64,000 nucleotides of DNA, from contig JBGPGO010000014.1 in NCBI GenBank assembly GCA_041483895.1, forward strand, positions 1 to 64,000. Direction: 5' to 3'. Shown one piece after another: positions 52,590-62,096 of the stretch. The DNA is from Fimbriimonadia bacterium. GTDB taxonomy: Bacteria > Armatimonadota > Fimbriimonadia > Fimbriimonadales > JABRVX01. The stretch's first letter is position 1. Every line of letters starts with the position of its first letter. A program made the translations under genes and the position numbers. The notes below the pieces were generated by a model, which was not told the origin of the DNA, ran no database searches, and saw nothing but the letters and a program-made list of their open reading frames with translations.

Positions 52590-52664
52590 TGGAGCGGGAG
52601 ACGGGAATCGAACCCGCGACATTCAGCTTGGGAAGCTGACGTTCTACCGCTGAACTACCCCCGC
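52590..52664 (-). tRNA. tRNA-Gly (anticodon CCC)
   Basis: Reverse complement GCGGGGGTAGTTCAGCGGTAGAACGTCAGCTTCCCAAGCTGAATGTCGCGGGTTCGATTCCCGTCTCCCGCTCCA: cloverleaf, GTTCGA T-loop, encoded CCA. Confidence 0.96.
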
Positions 52665-52717: not shown

Positions 52718-52915
52718 TCACGAGCGTCTCGTCGGAAACCGATACAGACCCGAATCGATGTCTTCCTTGGTGGTGGAGCCTGGGTATGACCCGTAACACT
52801 CGCTAAGGAAGTGCCCCTTCCCGCCGTTCTGCAGCCGCTTCATCTCCATCTTGACCTCGGCAAGTTCGGCCTTTAGCTCCTGTTCTCGCTTCTTGAGTTC
52901 CTCTATCGTCTTCAT
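52718..52915 (-). CDS. small coiled-coil hypothetical protein
   Basis: 65-aa ORF; TATAAT 8 nt upstream of ATG. Confidence 0.55.
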   Translation of the reverse strand: MKTIEELKKREQELKAELAEVKMEMKRLQNGGKGHFLSECYGSYPGSTTKEDIDSGLYRFPTRRS

Positions 52916-53469: not shown

Positions 53470-53657
53470 ACCGGTATAAATACGAGGTTTGGTCATGATT
53501 GGGTCATTTGCCCCGCGCATACTGAGCAGAAAACTGTTCTATACTCCGTGATCTTGACAAGGCAGCCGAAATAAACCAATCAGGGCCCACACCCGGAACG
53601 TATCTTCTATTAGGCACTTAGGTCGATCAAATCTCGAGTCGGAGGACAACACCCACC

Positions 53658-54524
53658 ATGAAGCGGGGTTTCACGCTCATTGAGCTTCTCGTCGTCATCG
53701 CCATCATCGCGATATTAGCCGCCATTCTCTTCCCGGTCTTTGCGCAGGCCCGGAACCAAGCGAAGAAGACCCAGGCGCAAAGCAATTTCAACCAAATTGG
53801 CAAAGCCATGGAAATGTACAAATCGGATAACGGACAGAAGTATCCGATGGGCTTGTACGTGTACGGTCCTCTCAACCATCTCAACAACCGAGTTTGGGGC
53901 CAACTCGTTCAACCGTACACCAAGAACTGGGACGTTTTCGCGGATCCGGTGGACAGCAATCAAGGCATCACCAATTTTCAAACGGACCACAGTACCGGTT
54001 CGAAGTGCCCGGCCGCCACGTTGCAGCTTTGCCAGCAGTTTTGGCAGGCGACCGTTTCCAACGTTGGCATCAACATGGATTACATCATGCCGGTCATAAC
54101 CGATGAGAACGGCAACGACTTACCCGTGGGGATCAAAGATACGCGGAACCAGGCGCCGTCCAAGTGCATTTTGGCGGTGGACAGCGTTTGGGATCGGGAC
54201 TCCACGAGCGGCCAGCCGAAGGGTGGCGGCAGCTTCCTCGTCGATCCGCCCGCTGAGAAATTTAACGGGAATAGCACATTCCCCTACGCAGAAGTCGGAC
54301 AATTTTCGTACGGCGGAGGCTGGTTTCCCAGCAAGCCGAAGGCATGGAACGTTTATGGCGGCGTATGGCCTTGGCACCTCGGCGGAGGTCAGGCCGTGGT
54401 CATCTTCACCGACACTCACGTCAAAACACTGACGATTCCGCAGCTGGTTGACGGCTGCACCGTCAGTGACGGATTTGGTGGAGCGATCACGGATCGGGAC
54501 CGATACCTCTGGGACCTGCAGTAA
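53658..54524 (+). CDS. prepilin-type N-terminal cleavage/methylation protein (array copy 1)
   Basis: [36 protein letters not shown]...FTDTHVK; ends WDLQ; GGAGG RBS. Confidence 0.92.
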
Positions 54525-54546
54525 TCAACCTTTAGGCCTTTGTAAT

Positions 54547-54580
54547 TTCGGCAGCCGCCCATGTCGTGGAGGCTGCCGAA
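54547..54580 (+). terminator. hairpin after prepilin copy 1
   Basis: TTCGGCAGCC...GGCTGCCGAA. Confidence 0.55.
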
Positions 54581-54604
54581 GCCATAAATGGAAAGCGGAG
54601 TTCT

Positions 54605-54823
54605 GTATTAATACTGGGTTTAAGGTGGATTGAACCGATAGCCGGTATTTTGCGTCAGGTTAATTGGCACTCCACCAGTCATTAATCTGTTCCTTTCTAA
54701 TGGCAACTGGAAAATCTCAACCAATTTGCCAAGGATTGAGATAGAATAAAGGTTCATGCGCCGGCGTTGCTCTTTCGTAACGTCGCAGCGACCAAATCAC
54801 CTTGTAGGAGGTACCGACTCATC
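54605..54823 (+). promoter_or_regulatory. duplicated ~220-bp leader, copy A
   Basis: Closely matches 56533-56750; similarity extends ~90 nt into the CDS. Confidence 0.8.
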
Positions 54824-55678
54824 ATGAAACGAGGCTTTACGCTCATCGAACTCCTCGTCGTCATCGCAATCATTGCTATTCTAGCGGCTATTCTTTTCCC
54901 TGTCTTCGCGCAAGCGAGGCTTCAGGCCAAAAAGACCGCCTGCCAAAGTAATTTTAATCAGATTGGCAAGGCGATGGAAATGTATAAGACCGACAATGAT
55001 CAGAAGTATGCACCGACCAACTTGGATCCGTACACATTCCATTTTCCGGATAAGCCGTGGACATGGACAATCCAAAGCTATGTAAAGAACTGGAACGTCT
55101 ACAGTTGCCCAGGCGATCCCAATCAGGTTGATAAGACGCTCGAAAGAAATGTGGAAACCAACGCAGCTTGCGCGCCGACCGATACGAACTGCAAGTATTA
55201 CGGACGCGGCACCTTGGCCAACATCGGCCTCAACATGCAAAATCTGTCTCCGCTTGCATGCGTCGGCTCTCACTGCGGAGGCTGGGGCATCAAAGATACT
55301 CGCAACCAGGCCCCGTCCAAATGCATATTGGCTGTGGACAGCATTTGGGACCGCGATCCAGTGTCGGGCGCTCCCATCGGTGGGGGCAATTGGGCCCTCG
55401 ATCCACCGGCAAATAAGCTTCCTGACAACACCAACACGCTACCCTTACCAGCAGGCTACTCGACGTGGTGGTGGTTCGGCGGTTGGAACCCGAGCAAGCC
55501 ATTGGCATGGAACTTCTATGGAGGTTGCTGGCCTTGGCATGGATCGTGTACAGTCATATTCACCGATACGCACGTCAAGAACCTTAAGCCGCTCCAGCTC
55601 GCCGAGGGTTGTGACCTGCAGGATGGCTGGACGGGGTTCATCCTCGATCGAGACAAGTACCTTTGGGATCTTCAATAA
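54824..55678 (+). CDS. prepilin-type protein (array copy 2)
   Basis: [42 protein letters not shown]. Confidence 0.92.
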
Positions 55679-55681
55679 AAC

Positions 55682-55903
55682 ATGAAGAAATCTGTTAATC
55701 CGCTTTGGATCGTCGTTGGCCTCGTCGTGGCGGGGGTCATTCTAGCGATCGCCTTCATGAAGGGCGGTTCAAATCCGGACATGCCCGATACCGCGAAAGA
55801 TGCTGAGACCATCAAGCAAATGAAGCACCAAGATACGGGTCTGCAACCTGGCGGCACTCGCCCTGGTGAGATCGGCCCGACGACGGGACGGGGCGGAAAA
55901 TAA
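55682..55903 (+). CDS. small single-TM partner protein
   Basis: MKKSVNP + TM + Gly/Pro tail; starts 3 nt after the prepilin stop. Confidence 0.8.
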   Translation: MKKSVNPLWIVVGLVVAGVILAIAFMKGGSNPDMPDTAKDAETIKQMKHQDTGLQPGGTRPGEIGPTTGRGGK

Positions 55904-55956
55904 TCAACGCTGTTTGAGGGGGGATATTGCTATCCCTCCTCGGACAGAATTGGACC

Positions 55957-56166
55957 ATGAAGAAAAACGTCAGTCCAATCTATATCGTTTTTGCCGCCGT
56001 CGCATGCGCGGCAGTTCTCGCGTTCGCATACCTCAAAGGCGGCGTTGCGGACAAATCCAGTGATGTTGATTCAACCGTGAAAGAACTCACAAAGGATCAG
56101 AAGGGACCAAGTCTGCCCGCCGGCGGCGCTGTTCCTGGCGTCTCTGCTCCGGTAAAAATGCGCTAG
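55957..56166 (+). CDS. small single-TM partner protein
   Basis: MKKNVSPIYIVFA...; clear paralog of 57807-58016. Confidence 0.8.
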   Translation: MKKNVSPIYIVFAAVACAAVLAFAYLKGGVADKSSDVDSTVKELTKDQKGPSLPAGGAVPGVSAPVKMR

Positions 56167-56237
56167 CAGGATTGGCCGAAAGCCCGGCCGCCAAAGACTC
56201 GTTCGCGCGGATATCCCAGATGCGAGCGGTTCGGAGG

Positions 56238-56500
56238 ATGAATATGAATCGCGGGTTCACTCTCATCGAGCTGCTGGTTGTGATCGCCATTATCGCGATT
56301 GTGGCGGCCATCCTGTTCCCTGTTTTTGCGTCTGCCAGTCAGAAGCCAAGAAGACAGGCTGCCAAAGCAATTTCAACCAGATTGGAAAAGCAATGGAGAT
56401 GTACAAGATCGATTGGAGTCAGAAATATTCGCCTATCGATTACAAGCCTTGTACCGCCGCATGCTGCCATCACGATCTCGATACGGTCTGGGGGCAAATG
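56238..56500 (+). pseudogene. frameshifted, truncated prepilin-type gene (copy of the 58094 gene)
   Basis: [10 protein letters not shown] start; frameshift near 56340; shifted frame continues [49 protein letters not shown], matching 58094, then breaks off. Confidence 0.88.
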
Positions 56501-56532
56501 CCGAATTACTTTAATAGGATCAGATACATTCC

Positions 56533-56750
56533 GTATTAATACTTGGTTTTGGGAGAATTAAACCTATAGCCGGTATTTTGCGTCAGGTTGATTGGCACTC
56601 CACCAGCCATTAATCTGTTCCTTTCTAATGGCAATTGGAAAATCTCGACCAGTTTGCCAAGGATTGAGTTAGAATAAAGGTTCCTGCCCCGGCGTCCGTT
56701 TTTGCGACTTCGGAGCGACCAAATCACCTTGTAGGAGGTACCGGCTCATC
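56533..56750 (+). promoter_or_regulatory. duplicated ~220-bp leader, copy B
   Basis: Closely matches 54605-54823. Confidence 0.8.
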
Positions 56751-57614
56751 ATGAAACGAGGCTTTACGCTCATCGAACTCCTCGTCGTGATCGCAATCAT
56801 TGCCATTCTAGCGGCTATTCTATTCCCTGTCTTCGCGCAAGCGCGAAACCAGGCCAAAAAGACCCAAGCCCAGAGCAACTTCAATCAACTGGGAAAGGCC
56901 ATCGAAATGTACAAGGGGGACAACGGTCAAAAGTATCCCCAAGCGAACTATCTTCCTTGCACCGCGGTTAACTGCAACCACCTTAAAAATAAGGCATGGG
57001 GTCAGAATGTGCAGCCGTACACTAAGAACTGGGATGTGTTTAGCGATCCCGGAGACAAGAACCAGACGTTGGTGAATTTCCAGACGGATCAGAACACCGG
57101 AACGAAGTGTCCGGCGGCGACGCTGCGACTCTGCGAAGAGTTTTGGCGCGCCACGCTCACCGACTTCGGCGTCAACGGACAGTACATCATGCCGACGCTC
57201 GCGAATCCGGACCGCTCATACGGAATTAAGGATTCGCGCAACCAGGCGCCCGCAAAGTGCATTTTGGCGTTGGACAGTGTCTGGTGGCGCGACCCGGTCT
57301 CCGGCGATCCGCGAGGCGGCGGTAACTGGGATTTAGATCCGCCCTCCAGAACCTTCAATGGAATAGACACCTTCCCGTATGCGGGCAACAGCCCGTACTG
57401 GTTTGGTGGTTGGATGCCAAGCCAGCCGAAGGCGTGGAATGTCTATGGCGGGGTCTGGCCGTATCACCTCGGTGGCGAGCAGGCCATTGTCATCTTCACA
57501 GACACTCATGTGAAGACTATGAAGATTCCTCAGATAGCGGCGGGTTGCGATGTTCGCGACGCTTGGGGCGGTCAGATACTGGACCGAGATGCATATCTCT
57601 GGGACCTCCAGTAA
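56751..57614 (+). CDS. prepilin-type protein (array copy 3)
   Basis: [22 protein letters not shown]. Confidence 0.92.
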   Translation: MKRGFTLIELLVVIAIIAILAAILFPVFAQARNQAKKTQAQSNFNQLGKAIEMYKGDNGQKYPQANYLPCTAVNCNHLKNKAWGQNVQPYTKNWDVFSDPGDKNQTLVNFQTDQNTGTKCPAATLRLCEEFWRATLTDFGVNGQYIMPTLANPDRSYGIKDSRNQAPAKCILALDSVWWRDPVSGDPRGGGNWDLDPPSRTFNGIDTFPYAGNSPYWFGGWMPSQPKAWNVYGGVWPYHLGGEQAIVIFTDTHVKTMKIPQIAAGCDVRDAWGGQILDRDAYLWDLQ

Positions 57615-57639
57615 TCTAGCCGGAATCTAGATCATCTCA

Positions 57640-57670
57640 ATACGCCCTCGAACTGGCTTCGAGGGCGTAT
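57640..57670 (+). terminator. hairpin after prepilin copy 3
   Basis: ATACGCCCTCGAA-ctggc-TTCGAGGGCGTAT perfect 13-bp stem. Confidence 0.65.
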
Positions 57671-57806
57671 GCCTCATTTGTGAACCATTTGGTTTTGACG
57701 CCGGACTAAAGAGGCAGCACCGCGAAATATCGGGTAGGATGAAAAAGCAGCGTCGTGGATCGGTAAGATTCCGATCCAAATTCATCGAACAGGATAATTT
57801 GCGTCT

Positions 57807-58016
57807 ATGAAGAAGAGTGTTAGTCCGATTTACATCGTTTTCGCCGTAGTCGTGCTCGTCGCCGTTCTTGCCTTTATTTACCTGAAAGTTGCGGGGGCTG
57901 ACAAGGGAAGCGACGTCAACGCGACCGTGAACGAATTGACCAAGAATAACAGGGCTGCTCCTGTGCCGGAGGGCGGAGTTGTGCCGGGCGTTGTAGCGCC
58001 GACCAAACTTAAGTAG
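57807..58016 (+). CDS. small single-TM partner protein
   Basis: MKKSVSPIYIVFA + TM + ADK.SDV..TV.ELTK...P.GG.VPGV.AP.K. Confidence 0.8.
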   Translation: MKKSVSPIYIVFAVVVLVAVLAFIYLKVAGADKGSDVNATVNELTKNNRAAPVPEGGVVPGVVAPTKLK

Positions 58017-58047
58017 TAACGGTTGATTCGTCCAGCCAATTTGAAAT

Positions 58048-58072
58048 GACCCCACAACGCACGGGGTCTTTT
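58048..58072 (+). terminator. possible intrinsic terminator
   Basis: GACCCC-N9-GGGGTC followed by TTTT. Confidence 0.45.
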
Positions 58073-58093
58073 GCGTTTTTGGGAGGATAGTCG

Positions 58094-58948
58094 ATGAAAC
58101 ACGCATTCACCTTGATCGAACTCTTGGTCGTCATTGCGATCATAGCCATCTTGGCGGCGATCTTATTCCCTGTTTTCGCCAGCGCCCGCCTTCAGGCCAA
58201 GAAGACAGGCTGTCAAAGCAATTTCAACCAGATCGGCAAGGCGATGGAGATGTATAAGATCGATTGGAGTGAAAAGTATTCGCCCATCGATTACAAGCCC
58301 TGTACCGCCGCATTCTGTCATCACAATCTCGATACGGTCTGGGGACAAATGTTATATCCATACACGAAGAGCTACGAAGTCCTGGCTTGCCCGGCAGATT
58401 TCAATCAGGTCGATTCGACATACCGTATCGACCACATCAACAACCAACCCTGCCCGCCGGGAAACCGAACCTGCTATGAATTCTGGCGAGGCATGCTGAC
58501 GAATTTCGGGATAAATTCTCAATACATTGCGCCGGAGCTTGCCTACCCTGATCGCGAGTGGCCGATCAAGGACACTCGGATCGAAGCGCCCGCGAAATGC
58601 ATTTTGGCGCTCGACAGCATTTGGGAACGGAACGCCCAAACGGGAGCGCCGGAAGACGGGGGAAGCTGGTCTGTCGATCCGCCGTCGCGAATCTACAATA
58701 ACCAAGACACCTTCCCATTCCCAGGGAACAGTCCCTATTGGTTCGGCGGTTGGGAGCCGAGCCATCCGCTCGTCTGGAACGTTTACGGCGGGGTTTGGCC
58801 GTGGCACGCCGATAACGCGCAGGTGATTTTCACCGACACCCATGTCAAAGCGATGACCATCGGCCAAATCGCAGCAGGCTGCGACGTCCGCGACGGTTGG
58901 GAGGGGCCAATCACGGATCGAGAGGCATATTTGTGGGATTTGAAGTAA
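58094..58948 (+). CDS. prepilin-type protein (array copy 4)
   Basis: [13 protein letters not shown]9-DTH; WDLK; GGAGG RBS. Confidence 0.92.
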   Translation: MKHAFTLIELLVVIAIIAILAAILFPVFASARLQAKKTGCQSNFNQIGKAMEMYKIDWSEKYSPIDYKPCTAAFCHHNLDTVWGQMLYPYTKSYEVLACPADFNQVDSTYRIDHINNQPCPPGNRTCYEFWRGMLTNFGINSQYIAPELAYPDREWPIKDTRIEAPAKCILALDSIWERNAQTGAPEDGGSWSVDPPSRIYNNQDTFPFPGNSPYWFGGWEPSHPLVWNVYGGVWPWHADNAQVIFTDTHVKAMTIGQIAAGCDVRDGWEGPITDREAYLWDLK

Positions 58949-59008
58949 ATTCCCTGTATAATGCTGTGAAGCCTCAACAAGGTAGGCAAGCCATTTGGAG
59001 GTAGCACG

Positions 59009-59866
59009 ATGAAACAACGCGGTTTTACTCTCATCGAATTGCTCGTCGTCATTGCAATCATAGCCATCCTAGCCGCGATCCTCTTTCCGGTCTTCGCACA
59101 GGCCCGTAAGCAGGCAAAGAAGACCCAGGCGCTCAGCAACTTCAATCAGCTTGGCAAGGCAATGGAGATGTACAAAGGCGACAACAGCCAGAAGTACCCA
59201 CCCCTCAACTACTTGCCGGGGACTGCTGCGGGCCTGAGCGATCCCAAGAACATGGTTTGGGGCCAACTTATTCAGCCCTACACAAAGAACTGGGAAGTGT
59301 TTAGCGATCCTGGAGATGCAAACCAAATCCCAGACGTGATCGAGCGTAATCAAATCACGAACCAGAAGTGCGCAGCCAACGATCGGCATTGCAGGGAGTT
59401 CTGGCGAGGCACCCTTACGAACTTCGGCATCAATTGCCAGTACATCATGACAATGCTCGCCTATCCCGACCGAATGTGGTCCATCAAAGACAACCGGATT
59501 CAAGCGCCTTCGAAGTGCATCCTGGCAATCGACAGTATTTGGGAACGAGATCCGAGCAGCGGCAGACCGATCGGAGGTGGCAATTGGGCACTCGATCCCC
59601 CGGCTCGCGTTTACAAGGGGATAGATACCTTCGCTTTCCCGGGCAATAGCCCATATTGGTTTGGAGGGTGGACGCCTTCGAAGCCGCTCGCGTGGACGGT
59701 TTATGGCGGCGCTTGGCCATTCCACACGGATACGGCGGTTGTCATCTTCACTGACACGCATGTCAAGGCCCTTCGAGTTACTCAGCTCGCCGCCGGATGT
59801 GACGTCCGCGACGGCTGGGCAGGACAAATCTTGGACAGGGATGAATACCTGTACGATCTGCAATGA
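59009..59866 (+). CDS. prepilin-type protein (array copy 5)
   Basis: [14 protein letters not shown]9-DTH; YDLQ; GGAGGT RBS. Confidence 0.92.
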
Positions 59867-60744
59867 AAAACAAAAACGCATTTACACTTATCGAACTGCT
59901 CGTCGTCATCGCAATCATAGCCATTCTGGCCGCGATACTCTTTCCTGTTTTTGCACAGGCAAGGGAAAGCGCGTTCAAAACACAGTGCATCAGCAATTTC
60001 AGCCAAAGCCAACGGTCGGTGCTCATGTATGCCGACGACAACGGGAATCGCTGCGTGCCGGTCAACAGCGCCGGCTTCGGTATGCCCGGATACGGTGTGT
60101 ACACGAGCGCCGCCAACCACGACAAGCCGTGGCCGGAGACGATTCAACCGTACATGAAGAGCTGGAACGTGATCCGTTGCCCGTCGGACCGCAATGCGAA
60201 CGACAACGACCTGTCTGTGGACCTCGACGACGCGACGAAAATCCCGCCTACCGATTCGACAAAACGGCATTGGGCCTGGGGATTCCGGGCCAACGTGGGC
60301 CTGAACTTTGACTGGCTATCGTATAGCACCGCGCCGTGCTCGGCTGGCATTATGAAAAACTTCCGTCTTTCCTACGCTCCGAGTCCGGCGCGAACGATCA
60401 TGTTCACCGATTCTGTTTGGAATCGGCTTCCGGATGGTACTCCACTAGGAGGCGGTAACTGGGCGGTCGACGCCCCGGTTACGCCAAGCGATATGCGTTG
60501 CTGGCTCGGCGGCTGGCGATGCTGGATAGCGGGCAACGGCGATCCGGATTCGGCTGTCTGCAAGGCGCAATGGAATGCCTGGGGCGGCAGCTATCCTTGG
60601 CATACCGGTAAGTCGCTGTTCAACACCGCCTATATCGATGGCCACGCCAAGTCCAACCGTCTCGGCGATCTTCTCGCCGGGACCAATCCCAAGAACAATC
60701 AAATCTTGGACGCCGATCTTTGCCAGTGGGACACACTAAAGTAG
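59863..60744 (+). CDS. prepilin-type protein with H-X9-DG-like C-terminal motif (array copy 6)
   Basis: [36 protein letters not shown] coupling to copy 5. Confidence 0.92.
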
Positions 60745-60746
60745 CC

Positions 60747-60947
60747 ATGAAGCGATCCTTAGACCCAAAAACGACGATCATCGTTCTTGTGCTGGCCCTG
60801 GTCGTTATCGGCGGGATAACCTGGTGGAGGGTGTCGAACAGCAAGGCCGGCGGGAGCTACGAAAAGGTGAATACCTTCCCTGAGCCGACAGACAAGTCTC
60901 TGCCTCCGTCGCCGATGCCGTCGGTTGGAAAACTCGGAAATAGATAA
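60747..60947 (+). CDS. small single-TM partner protein
   Basis: MKRSLDP + TM + Pro-rich tail; starts 2 nt after the prepilin stop. Confidence 0.78.
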   Translation: MKRSLDPKTTIIVLVLALVVIGGITWWRVSNSKAGGSYEKVNTFPEPTDKSLPPSPMPSVGKLGNR

Positions 60948-60999
60948 TCACTACCCTCCCCGCTTGCTGTTTAGACCGGGGAGGGAGGATTCTCCCAAC

Positions 61000-61212
61000 A
61001 TGCCTGATGACTCGCCCTTGCTCATGAAAGAGTTACTAACGTGGATCGCCGAGCGCCCGCGGTCGTTCGACGAAACGCGCGAGGCATGGAAGACTTCGTG
61101 TCCCCGACAATCCGTGTGGGAAGACGCTCAGATCGAAGGGCTCGTTCGGCTCCTCGACGGCCATGTGGTGCTCACTGAACTCGGGGAATCCGCGCTGAAG
61201 GAGAAACCTTAG
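61000..61212 (+). CDS. small hypothetical protein (winged-helix-like)
   Basis: GGAGG RBS; LL.WI..RPR...T..AW.TSCPR.SVWEDA...GLV....LT..G. Confidence 0.6.
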   Translation: MPDDSPLLMKELLTWIAERPRSFDETREAWKTSCPRQSVWEDAQIEGLVRLLDGHVVLTELGESALKEKP

Positions 61213-61232
61213 TACCCAGTGAAACATGCTAC

Positions 61233-62096
61233 GTGCGCCGCGGATTTACCCTGATTGAGCTTTTGGTTGTGATCGCCGTCATCGCGATCCTCGCCTCGAT
61301 TCTATTTCCAGTCTTTTTGAGCGCCCGCGATTCCGCAAAAAAGACCATCTGCCTCAGCAACATGAACCAGGGAGGCAAGGCCATCTTCCTGTATTCATCG
61401 GACAACGGCGACCGGTGCGTCCCGCCAACCTCCCATGGACTGTGCGACAGCTTCGTCGGCTCCTGGACCTCCGAATCCGATCATGACATGGCTTGGCCGG
61501 AAATCGTGCAGCGATACGCCAAGGACTGGCAGTTCTTCCGCTGCCCTTCCGACCTCGCGGCAACGGATAGCGAGATGTCGAAGGCCCCGCGCGACGAGCA
61601 GCCTATCCCGCAAGACCAGACGGCAAAGAGGCATTGGGCTTGGGCGTTTCGCAGCCACATGGGCCTCAATTACAGTTGGCTGGCATACACGTTCAAGCGA
61701 GACAAGTTCAACGCCCGATTCGGCGCCATCCCATCACAGGCCAAGACCATCTTGCTGGTCGACTCGGTCTGGAAGCGGCAAACGGATGGGACGCCGTATG
61801 GAGGCGGGTCTTGGGCGGTGGACGCGCCTGCATCGGAGGACTTCCTGGACTGCACCCGCGCCGGGTGGCGCTGCTGGACCGTTGGACCCGGAGACCCCGA
61901 TTCTCAGGAATGCCGTGCCATGTCGGGAGCATTCGGGTATGCCTACCCTTGGCACACTTCGCACCAGGTCTTCAACACGGCCTTCATCGATGGACACGTG
62001 AAATCGCTCAAATTAGCTGACCTGTTGGCCGGAACCGACCCGAAGGCTCGAATCCTGACCGATGAAGAGGCCTGTCTTTGGGACACGCGAAAGTAG
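61233..62096 (+). CDS. prepilin-type protein with H-X9-DG-like motif (array copy 7)
   Basis: [22 protein letters not shown]...FNTAFIDGHVK; closest to copy 6. Confidence 0.92.
   Translation: MRRGFTLIELLVVIAVIAILASILFPVFLSARDSAKKTICLSNMNQGGKAIFLYSSDNGDRCVPPTSHGLCDSFVGSWTSESDHDMAWPEIVQRYAKDWQFFRCPSDLAATDSEMSKAPRDEQPIPQDQTAKRHWAWAFRSHMGLNYSWLAYTFKRDKFNARFGAIPSQAKTILLVDSVWKRQTDGTPYGGGSWAVDAPASEDFLDCTRAGWRCWTVGPGDPDSQECRAMSGAFGYAYPWHTSHQVFNTAFIDGHVKSLKLADLLAGTDPKARILTDEEACLWDTRK

Follow-up and report, generated by a model that had tools for sequence, protein, structure and literature searches.

An old tandem array of prepilin genes, tentatively read as accessory pilins, and its linked micro-anchor genes in a Fimbriimonadia bacterium

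Prepilin-type proteins of the DUF1559/SBP_bac_10 (PF07596) and H-X9-DG (TIGR04294) groups are among the largest function-unknown families of Planctomycetota, Verrucomicrobiota and Armatimonadota, and they have no match to a solved structure. They carry a class III leader, are about 280 amino acids (aa) long, contain a His-X(8-11)-Asp-Gly/Thr-His hairpin and occur as dozens of paralogues per genome, all of which they share with the genes described here. Their expansion and their flanking by signal-peptide genes have already been published, and two papers report 79 PulG-like genes in Fimbriimonas (PMC4072686) and a pulG-like pseudopilin with 67 homologues, possibly a member of the present family, in an alginate-induced cluster (PMC13274419). 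Ligand binding has been described for non-core and modular minor pilins (PMC9934059, PMC8179133 and PDB titles). We analysed a stretch of 64,000 nucleotides (nt) from a Fimbriimonadia bacterium (positions 1 to 64,000 of contig JBGPGO010000014.1, assembly GCA_041483895.1; hereafter the window), which carries a tandem array of such prepilin genes together with small membrane-anchored neighbours. This genome is called G000 and the contig C14, so that the window is G000:C14:1-64000, and G001, G002, G012 and G024 denote other genomes. Our literature search, which did not extend to most subscription papers or to any supplements, found no paper on the clade of the array or on transmembrane (TM) micro-partners in Armatimonadota.

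The array lies between greA on one side and a phosphoglycerate mutase gene on the other, and consists of seven intact prepilin-type genes (284-293 aa), one frameshifted fragment and four single-TM genes of 66-73 aa (Table 1). An earlier note, made by a model from the letters alone, had described seven intact co-oriented genes, one pseudogene and four interleaved small genes, and this inventory was confirmed, with all genes on the forward strand and the small ones encoding 73, 69, 69 and 66 aa. We conclude that the array is an old, conserved specialisation and not an ongoing diversification. Tentatively, and with somewhat less confidence than would make it probable, we read it as an old tandem expansion of accessory (non-core minor) pilins whose ligands differ from subtype to subtype and which a micro-protein escorts.

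All seven array prepilins scored above the cut-offs of both TIGR02532 and PF07963 and have a class III leader with Glu5 and Pro22, in line with the near-invariant signal noted before. Identity among the paralogues reaches 91% in the leader and alpha1-N helix, and in the 121-row alignment of the clade Glu5 is kept in 93 rows and Pro22 in 100 (gaps in 17 and 13). Pairwise identity is 56-71% among g1, g2, g4, g5 and g6; a second subtype, formed by g7 and g8, has 53% identity between its two members and 35-42% to the first five. Among the five close paralogues, conserved blocks (57-91% identity) alternate with variable ones (38-50%), as had been described, and the conserved motifs are those listed earlier, with a His-to-Asp spacing of 8, 9 or 11. 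The residue after Asp is Gly in g7 and g8 and Thr in the other five, and across the 121 rows this C-terminal hairpin motif keeps His in 105, Asp in 116 and Gly in 104 (Thr in 12). We claim no metal or catalytic site here, since His234 is substituted in 16 of the 121 rows, B-type orthologues included. Tryptophan accounts for 3.9-6.6% of the heads; in the 2478 long open reading frames (ORFs) of the genome, its median share is 1.2% and the 99th percentile 4.2%.

None of the seven proteins reached the PF07596 gathering cut-off of 23.3 bits by hmmscan (best 22.8; g1 was borderline at 23.3 in the genome search) or the TIGR04294 curated cut-off of 19 bits (best g8, 15.1), which three other G000 proteins pass. 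PF07596 matches 32 of the 121 clade members at E<=1e-4 and TIGR04294 matches 12 at E<=1e-3. Because the cut-offs are missed yet some clade members match, the array proteins were placed under neither model, and we treat them, from these profile comparisons, as a divergent Trp- and Cys-rich branch that would resemble the DUF1559/H-X9-DG group in function and descend from it.

The AlphaFold2 model of mature g6, built with 121 sequences, had a predicted local distance difference test (pLDDT) of 95.3 and a predicted TM-score of 0.90, and shows a 51-residue N-terminal helix (residues 3-53) and a small sheet, the last two strands of which follow the His-X9-Asp motif region. The top seven rows of a VIA-align search were all type IV pilins or pseudopilins, with Thermus PilA4 (6xxd) first, ComP at rank 3, PilV at rank 5 and PilX also among the matches. 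Matches in a PDB sequence search were confined to the N-terminal helix, and the loop insertions, about 160 residues, have no solved relative. The head folds by itself in prediction (pLDDT 91); none of 48,161 chains matched it at Z>=2 and Foldseek returned no match to it, which does not in itself prove a new fold. Cysteines covary between positions 36 and 95 (both in 78 rows, neither in 26, one in 7), between 194 and 259 (87, 20 and 14) and between 116 and 123 (18 rows), with Cys165 replacing Cys194 in the five close array paralogues; as the alignment rows are related, the p-values of this covariation are overstated. These pairs are predicted to form disulfides, with the head folding in the periplasm, and each array protein is predicted to consist of a type IV pilin core enlarged by long insertions in its loops.

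The pairing with small genes was assessed with a filter for ORFs of 40-130 aa that have an N-terminal TM segment or lipobox and a polar tail and lie no more than 200 nt from the pilin gene. Such a gene follows 5 of the 13 clade genes in G000, and 8 of the 13 have one on either side, compared with 7 of 400 long ORFs (sampled from 1957) that have one downstream; a count of 4/13 against this background table already gives p=2e-4. In relatives, with identical genes collapsed, a partner lies downstream of 20/28 clade genes and on either side of 22/28, and in phylum-wide loci downstream of 20/31; these two sets overlap and are not additive, and kin are not independent. Prepilin genes of any clade in metagenome loci have a partner in 29 of 37 cases. 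Among 45 distinct pilin-partner pairs, 36 partners are TM-anchored and nine are lipoproteins with a lipobox; the tails are 34-66 aa long (15% Pro, 14% Gly), 33 partners begin within 27 nt of the pilin stop and 36 have Lys or Arg among their last three residues. The TM anchor or lipobox would place the tail in the periplasm. No partner belongs to a Pfam or NCBIfam family above cut-off, and a search with the partner profile found seven proteins. In the array, s1-s3 are nearest to the partner of the relatives' A-type gene and s4 to that of the B-type gene, which argues for cognate pairing, although linkage by itself would produce the same pattern. Judged from sequence and gene order, the pairing of pilin and small-anchor genes is real, phylum-wide and cognate. 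It holds across the phylum (20/31 versus 7/400), but in the array it is not one-to-one: four small genes serve eight pilin genes, and the earlier description of dedicated partners goes too far. The predicted complex of g2 and s1 scored 0.30 against a mark of 0.32 with no controls folded, and speaks neither for nor against binding.

Profile searches for PilB/PilT, PilC, PilD and secretins had no match on contig C14, so that the window holds no pilus or type II secretion system (T2SS) assembly genes. Elsewhere G000 encodes one PilD, five PilB/GspE-like ATPases (which score below equivalog cut-offs), five PilT, five PilC and three pilM clusters, each with a secretin. The genome therefore possesses an assembly machine, as had been supposed in the earlier note, and the complete gene set outside the contig disposes of the objection that type IV pilus or T2SS machinery might be lacking. 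Two 104-aa pilins adjoin a minor-pilin cluster on contig C6 and are candidates for supplying the pilus shaft. Another locus (L009 5515-13017, on C21) contains pilB-pilT-pilC, then a gmhB-like gene on the opposite strand and a pair of H-X9-DG-type prepilins from a different clade, both of which have a small TM partner.

To better understand the evolution of the array, we compared its copies using codon models written for this analysis (M7 versus M8, three starts). The ratio of nonsynonymous to synonymous rates (omega) was 0.04 in the nine-sequence and seven-sequence sets, and by part was 0.011 in the helix, 0.03-0.04 in the core and 0.07-0.09 in the loops. No class of positively selected sites was found in the seven- and four-sequence A sets (twice the log-likelihood difference, 2dL, about 0); the four-sequence set is saturated and its omega meaningless. 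Synonymous sites between intact copies are saturated (proportion of differing synonymous sites, pS, 0.75-0.82), which lowers the power of the selection tests and indicates that the duplicates are old. The subtypes of g2, of g5 and of g6, g1 and g4 each group with separate proteins of other organisms (support 86-96). All 32 contig pieces listed from four sequencing runs (depth 2-6) were identical to the window; a further 3113 pieces and 69 difference rows lie outside this list, and the runs may represent one campaign or include the source. The differences listed within the array fall in conserved helix codons common to other organisms. Taken together, these results do not support the earlier view of a diversifying array, in the sense of ongoing positive selection or phage-driven antigenic change. 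That note had also set against itself the case of variable loops under purifying selection in an array fixed across relatives; the loops are indeed under purifying selection, but the array is not fixed, because G001 and G002 hold two pilin genes at this locus.

The same comparisons bear on another idea, in which the copies serve as large alternative major pilins or as antigenic variants and the cell switches between them to escape phages or to alter its adhesion. Major pilins can reach 297 aa (PMC11046646), the loops are variable with recent recombination tracts, and in the B clade (four sequences) M8 was better than M7 (2dL 12, 3% of sites). B-type orthologues of G001 and G002 differ in a mosaic patch with pS 0.57, versus about 0.15 elsewhere, and since the M8 signal coincides with the patch where pS also jumps, it points to recombination. 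With no positively selected class in the A clade, synonymous saturation, subtypes common to other organisms, no inverted repeats of >= 20 nt, identical listed contigs and small candidate major pilins elsewhere in the genome, we consider such switching quite unlikely. Slightly less likely still is that the copies are redundant duplicates without specialisation that drift towards loss. In its favour, one of the copies has become a pseudogene, 1-3 copies suffice for relatives, and g1 has drifted at conserved aromatic positions. With three of the four outgroups, the rate of g1 was about three times that of g4 (42 versus 14 changes with g6, p=2e-4), but with g2 as outgroup the counts were 21 versus 15; like the M8 signal of the B clade, this faster evolution runs against our view of the array as conserved. 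Against redundancy, seven frames are intact with omega about 0.04 despite synonymous saturation, and the g2-, g5- and g6-type subtypes each have separate orthologues.

At the same locus, the pilin genes of G001 and G002 number just two, one of A-type and one of B-type, and a partner gene comes after each of them. The array bears marks of recent exchange: the upstream regions of g2 and g4 are 88% identical over 223 nt, with the similarity extending into the first codons, and g3 and g5 are 89% identical over 159 nt. In our reconstruction, the locus after greA began with two pilin genes, an A-type and a B-type one with a partner each, and then gained further subtypes and duplicates, lost g3 and acquired recombination patches. 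The 3' end of g3 is cut directly before the duplicated upstream region of g4, and contigs from runs X1 and X2 (two of the four runs compared) span this junction without a difference, so the pseudogene is not an assembly artefact. The stretch was found in 21 sequencing runs, all labelled sediment metagenome, of which five hold at least half of its words, and no RNA sequencing run was among the listed holders. In G001, the interval separating the A-type from the B-type pilin encodes, on the opposite strand, two paralogous secreted-looking proteins of 470 aa without a Pfam match (L027 8931-12652). The tandem array itself reflects ordinary birth-and-death gene evolution and adds little beyond specialised subtypes to compare.

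In the accessory-pilin reading, PilD is predicted to cut each array prepilin, the products would enter a retractable type IV pilus in small numbers, the Trp-rich loops likely give each copy a surface or glycan ligand of its own, and within the inner membrane the pilin is likely escorted by the small anchored protein encoded next to it. We prefer this reading because the helix that would pack into the filament is the most constrained part, because retraction ATPases and small candidate shaft pilins are present, and because divergence lies in the aromatic, disulfide-pinned loops; the constraint on the helix (omega 0.011, 91% identity) would fit packing into the filament core.

Several observations weigh against it. 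PilA4 aligned to the g6 model over 113 residues (residues 1-252) with Z 4.7, below the reliable range of the tool, and a root-mean-square deviation of 3.1, and Foldseek found no match to this model at E<=0.001. Three of the seven intact array pilins (g1, g6 and g8) have no adjacent small gene, 11 of 31 related clade genes have no detected downstream partner, and gene linkage alone explains the co-inheritance of pilin and partner. A scan of the neighbourhoods of clade genes revealed no consistent metabolic link, most neighbours being unrelated housekeeping genes, and glycoside hydrolases flank only some copies (on C2 of G000 and in G012). Finally, two clade members in G000, C5:92974-93564 (reverse strand, P0012) and C1:162518-163153 (forward strand), keep the head but start with a signal anchor or signal peptide where the prepilin leader would be, which indicates that the head can work without canonical assembly.

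These leaderless paralogues are what would be expected if pilin and partner were an inner-membrane receptor facing the periplasm that binds a solute, passes it to transporters or sensors and never enters a filament. The lipoprotein and TM partners would then be interchangeable anchors, and a study on Tuwongella (PMC8567305) describes N_methyl+SBP_bac_10 proteins whose fractionation differs from that of plain pilins. On the other side, conservation of the leader, of Glu5 and of Pro22 is stricter than a plain anchor needs, and no transporter consistently adjoins the clade genes; we regard the receptor as rather unlikely, though less so than switching or redundancy. A bolder combination, which we think has a small chance of being right, is that DUF1559/H-X9-DG prepilins and their micro-anchors form a modular capture system, in which every anchor would both park and license its own pilin-fold receptor in the inner membrane, the receptor would travel on a retractable pilus to fetch one class of glycan or solute, and arrays of this kind would be the substrate repertoire of the cell. 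If true, this would give Armatimonadota and Planctomycetes-Verrucomicrobia-Chlamydiae (PVC) bacteria an equivalent of SusD libraries that is based on pili; these are the two groups for which the earlier note had stated an expansion of prepilin families that is, as said, already in print.

Prepilin ORFs of 150-420 aa number 46 in G000; 34 have a His-X(7-14)-Asp-(Gly/Thr/Ser)-His motif and 13 belong to the clade of the array. With a head-only profile, the clade was found in at least 132 of 151 genomes of the order, mostly in 1-3 copies (14 in G000, seven each in G001 and G002), and in at least 30 of 201 genomes across the phylum, these being lower bounds because 15-20 candidates were scored per genome and 12 of the 34 profile rows came from G000. 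The tally for the order takes in an unpublished genome, G036, on which alone no claim rests. In G024, four clade members in tandem, the last of them followed by the only partner, make up an independent array (L032 6862-11429). No array of the same genus was found in the metagenome contigs, where the best identity among 72 loci was 55%. In the ESM Atlas the head matched unnamed Armatimonadota clusters (0.97; one cluster with 18% PF07596), and s3 reached only 0.88. A second tandem array in G000 (C9:11495-15388, reverse strand) has four prepilin genes of another clade with no partner detected. The clade of the array is thus compact and nearly order-wide, with a fold predicted at high confidence and a cognate partner with two interchangeable anchor types, and offers a small set of testable pairs.

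The motif GTATWWATAC occurs at 53474, 54605 and 56533, 180-220 nt upstream of g1, g2 and g4, and is palindromic at g2 and g4. These are three of only five sites in the whole genome, and none was found at the other prepilin genes checked by position. The motif is possibly a regulator site. No sigma-70 site was found on the forward strand, and an Rfam scan had no match except a tRNA. Upstream of greA are a tRNA-Gly(CCC) gene (52590-52664) and a 65-aa ORF without a Pfam match (52718-52915), both on the reverse strand. Between s4 and g8, a 70-aa gene (61000-61212, forward strand) has no TM segment and no Pfam or NCBIfam match and looks unrelated. On C2 of G000 (L014 5377-10985), a clade member and its partner follow a GH38 mannosidase and an MGH1-like hydrolase on the same strand. 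A subtype with a degenerate leader (L015, L078-L080, L084, L092 and L094) keeps a context of alpha/beta hydrolase, GNAT acetyltransferase and pilin across the order, often with a 1500-aa FtsX-domain protein; this sole conserved context belongs to a different subtype.

Table 1. Features of the prepilin array, in window coordinates.
Feature	Position	Strand	Length (aa)	Description
g1	53658..54524	+	288	Prepilin-type; sister of g4, faster-evolving
g2 upstream region	54601..54823	+		AT-rich; begins with palindrome GTATTAATAC; likely promoter region
g2	54824..55678	+	284	Prepilin-type; subtype shared with the single A-type gene after greA in G001/G002
s1	55682..55903	+	73	Single-TM micro-protein; 3 nt past g2
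s2	55957..56166	+	69	Single-TM micro-protein; s3 paralogue; 5' of the pseudogene
g3	about 56244..56503	+		Pseudogene; g5-related 5' fragment, frameshift near 56341, 3'-truncated
g4 upstream region	56529..56750	+		Second copy of the g2 upstream region
g4	56751..57614	+	287	Prepilin-type; first codons ~95% identical to g2; body nearest g1 and g6
s3	57807..58016	+	69	Single-TM micro-protein; 77 nt ahead of g5
g5	58094..58948	+	284	Prepilin-type; subtype orthologues P0170/P0171
g6	59009..59866	+	285	Prepilin-type; AlphaFold model predicts pilin core with large insertions
g7	59863..60744	+	293	Prepilin-type, B subtype; overlaps g6 stop; orthologue in G001/G002
s4	60747..60947	+	66	Single-TM micro-protein; 2 nt past g7; nearest to partner of relatives' B-type gene
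g8	61233..62096	+	287	Prepilin-type; GTG start; g7 sister; no adjacent small gene

Compared with the DUF1559/H-X9-DG families, the array proteins fall under both curated cut-offs, five have Thr for Gly, and they form a distinct Trp-rich clade ending in (W/Y)D(L/T)x; as partner they have an anchor of 60-85 aa that carries a short Pro/Gly tail and falls into no Pfam or NCBIfam family. The genes are in tandem, whereas the family genes of Tuwongella are dispersed. The order of pilin gene and partner gene recalls PilA-N/PilA-C of Geobacter, and PilA-N ranks with the top sequence matches for the N-terminal helix. PilA-N has no head, which is supplied by PilA-C. The array pilin, in contrast, is predicted to fold a complete head alone, and its partner is a membrane-anchored, low-complexity peptide with a TM or lipid anchor and a Pro/Gly tail, for which reason a heterodimeric pilin of this type was rejected.

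Tandem pilin paralogues with conserved blocks, variable loops and recombination tracts are also found in pilE/pilS of Neisseria, where the pilS copies are not expressed and are missing their 5' end. In the array, seven copies have full leaders, the fragment g3 keeps its 5' end, and the copies are saturated, not near-identical. A pilE/pilS-type antigenic array does not agree with such full-length copies, a loop omega below 0.1 (at the low test power that saturation brings) and the identical listed contigs. The pilus-like locus MUL2 of Akkermansia (PMC13174399) ties pilus-type parts to the use of glycans, in a phylum where selfish uptake occurs. It is conserved as a single locus that includes PilM and a pilin of archaeal type, with no paralogue array or micro-partners. 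A further parallel is with the non-core minor pilins ComP, PilV and PilX of Neisseria and the modular minor pilins PilB and PilC of Streptococcus sanguinis, which also have a canonical alpha1-N helix with Glu5 and a pilin core with extra material; the array differs from them in its numerous paralogues, in the micro-protein linked to them, in loop insertions that total about 160 residues and in ligands that are putative.

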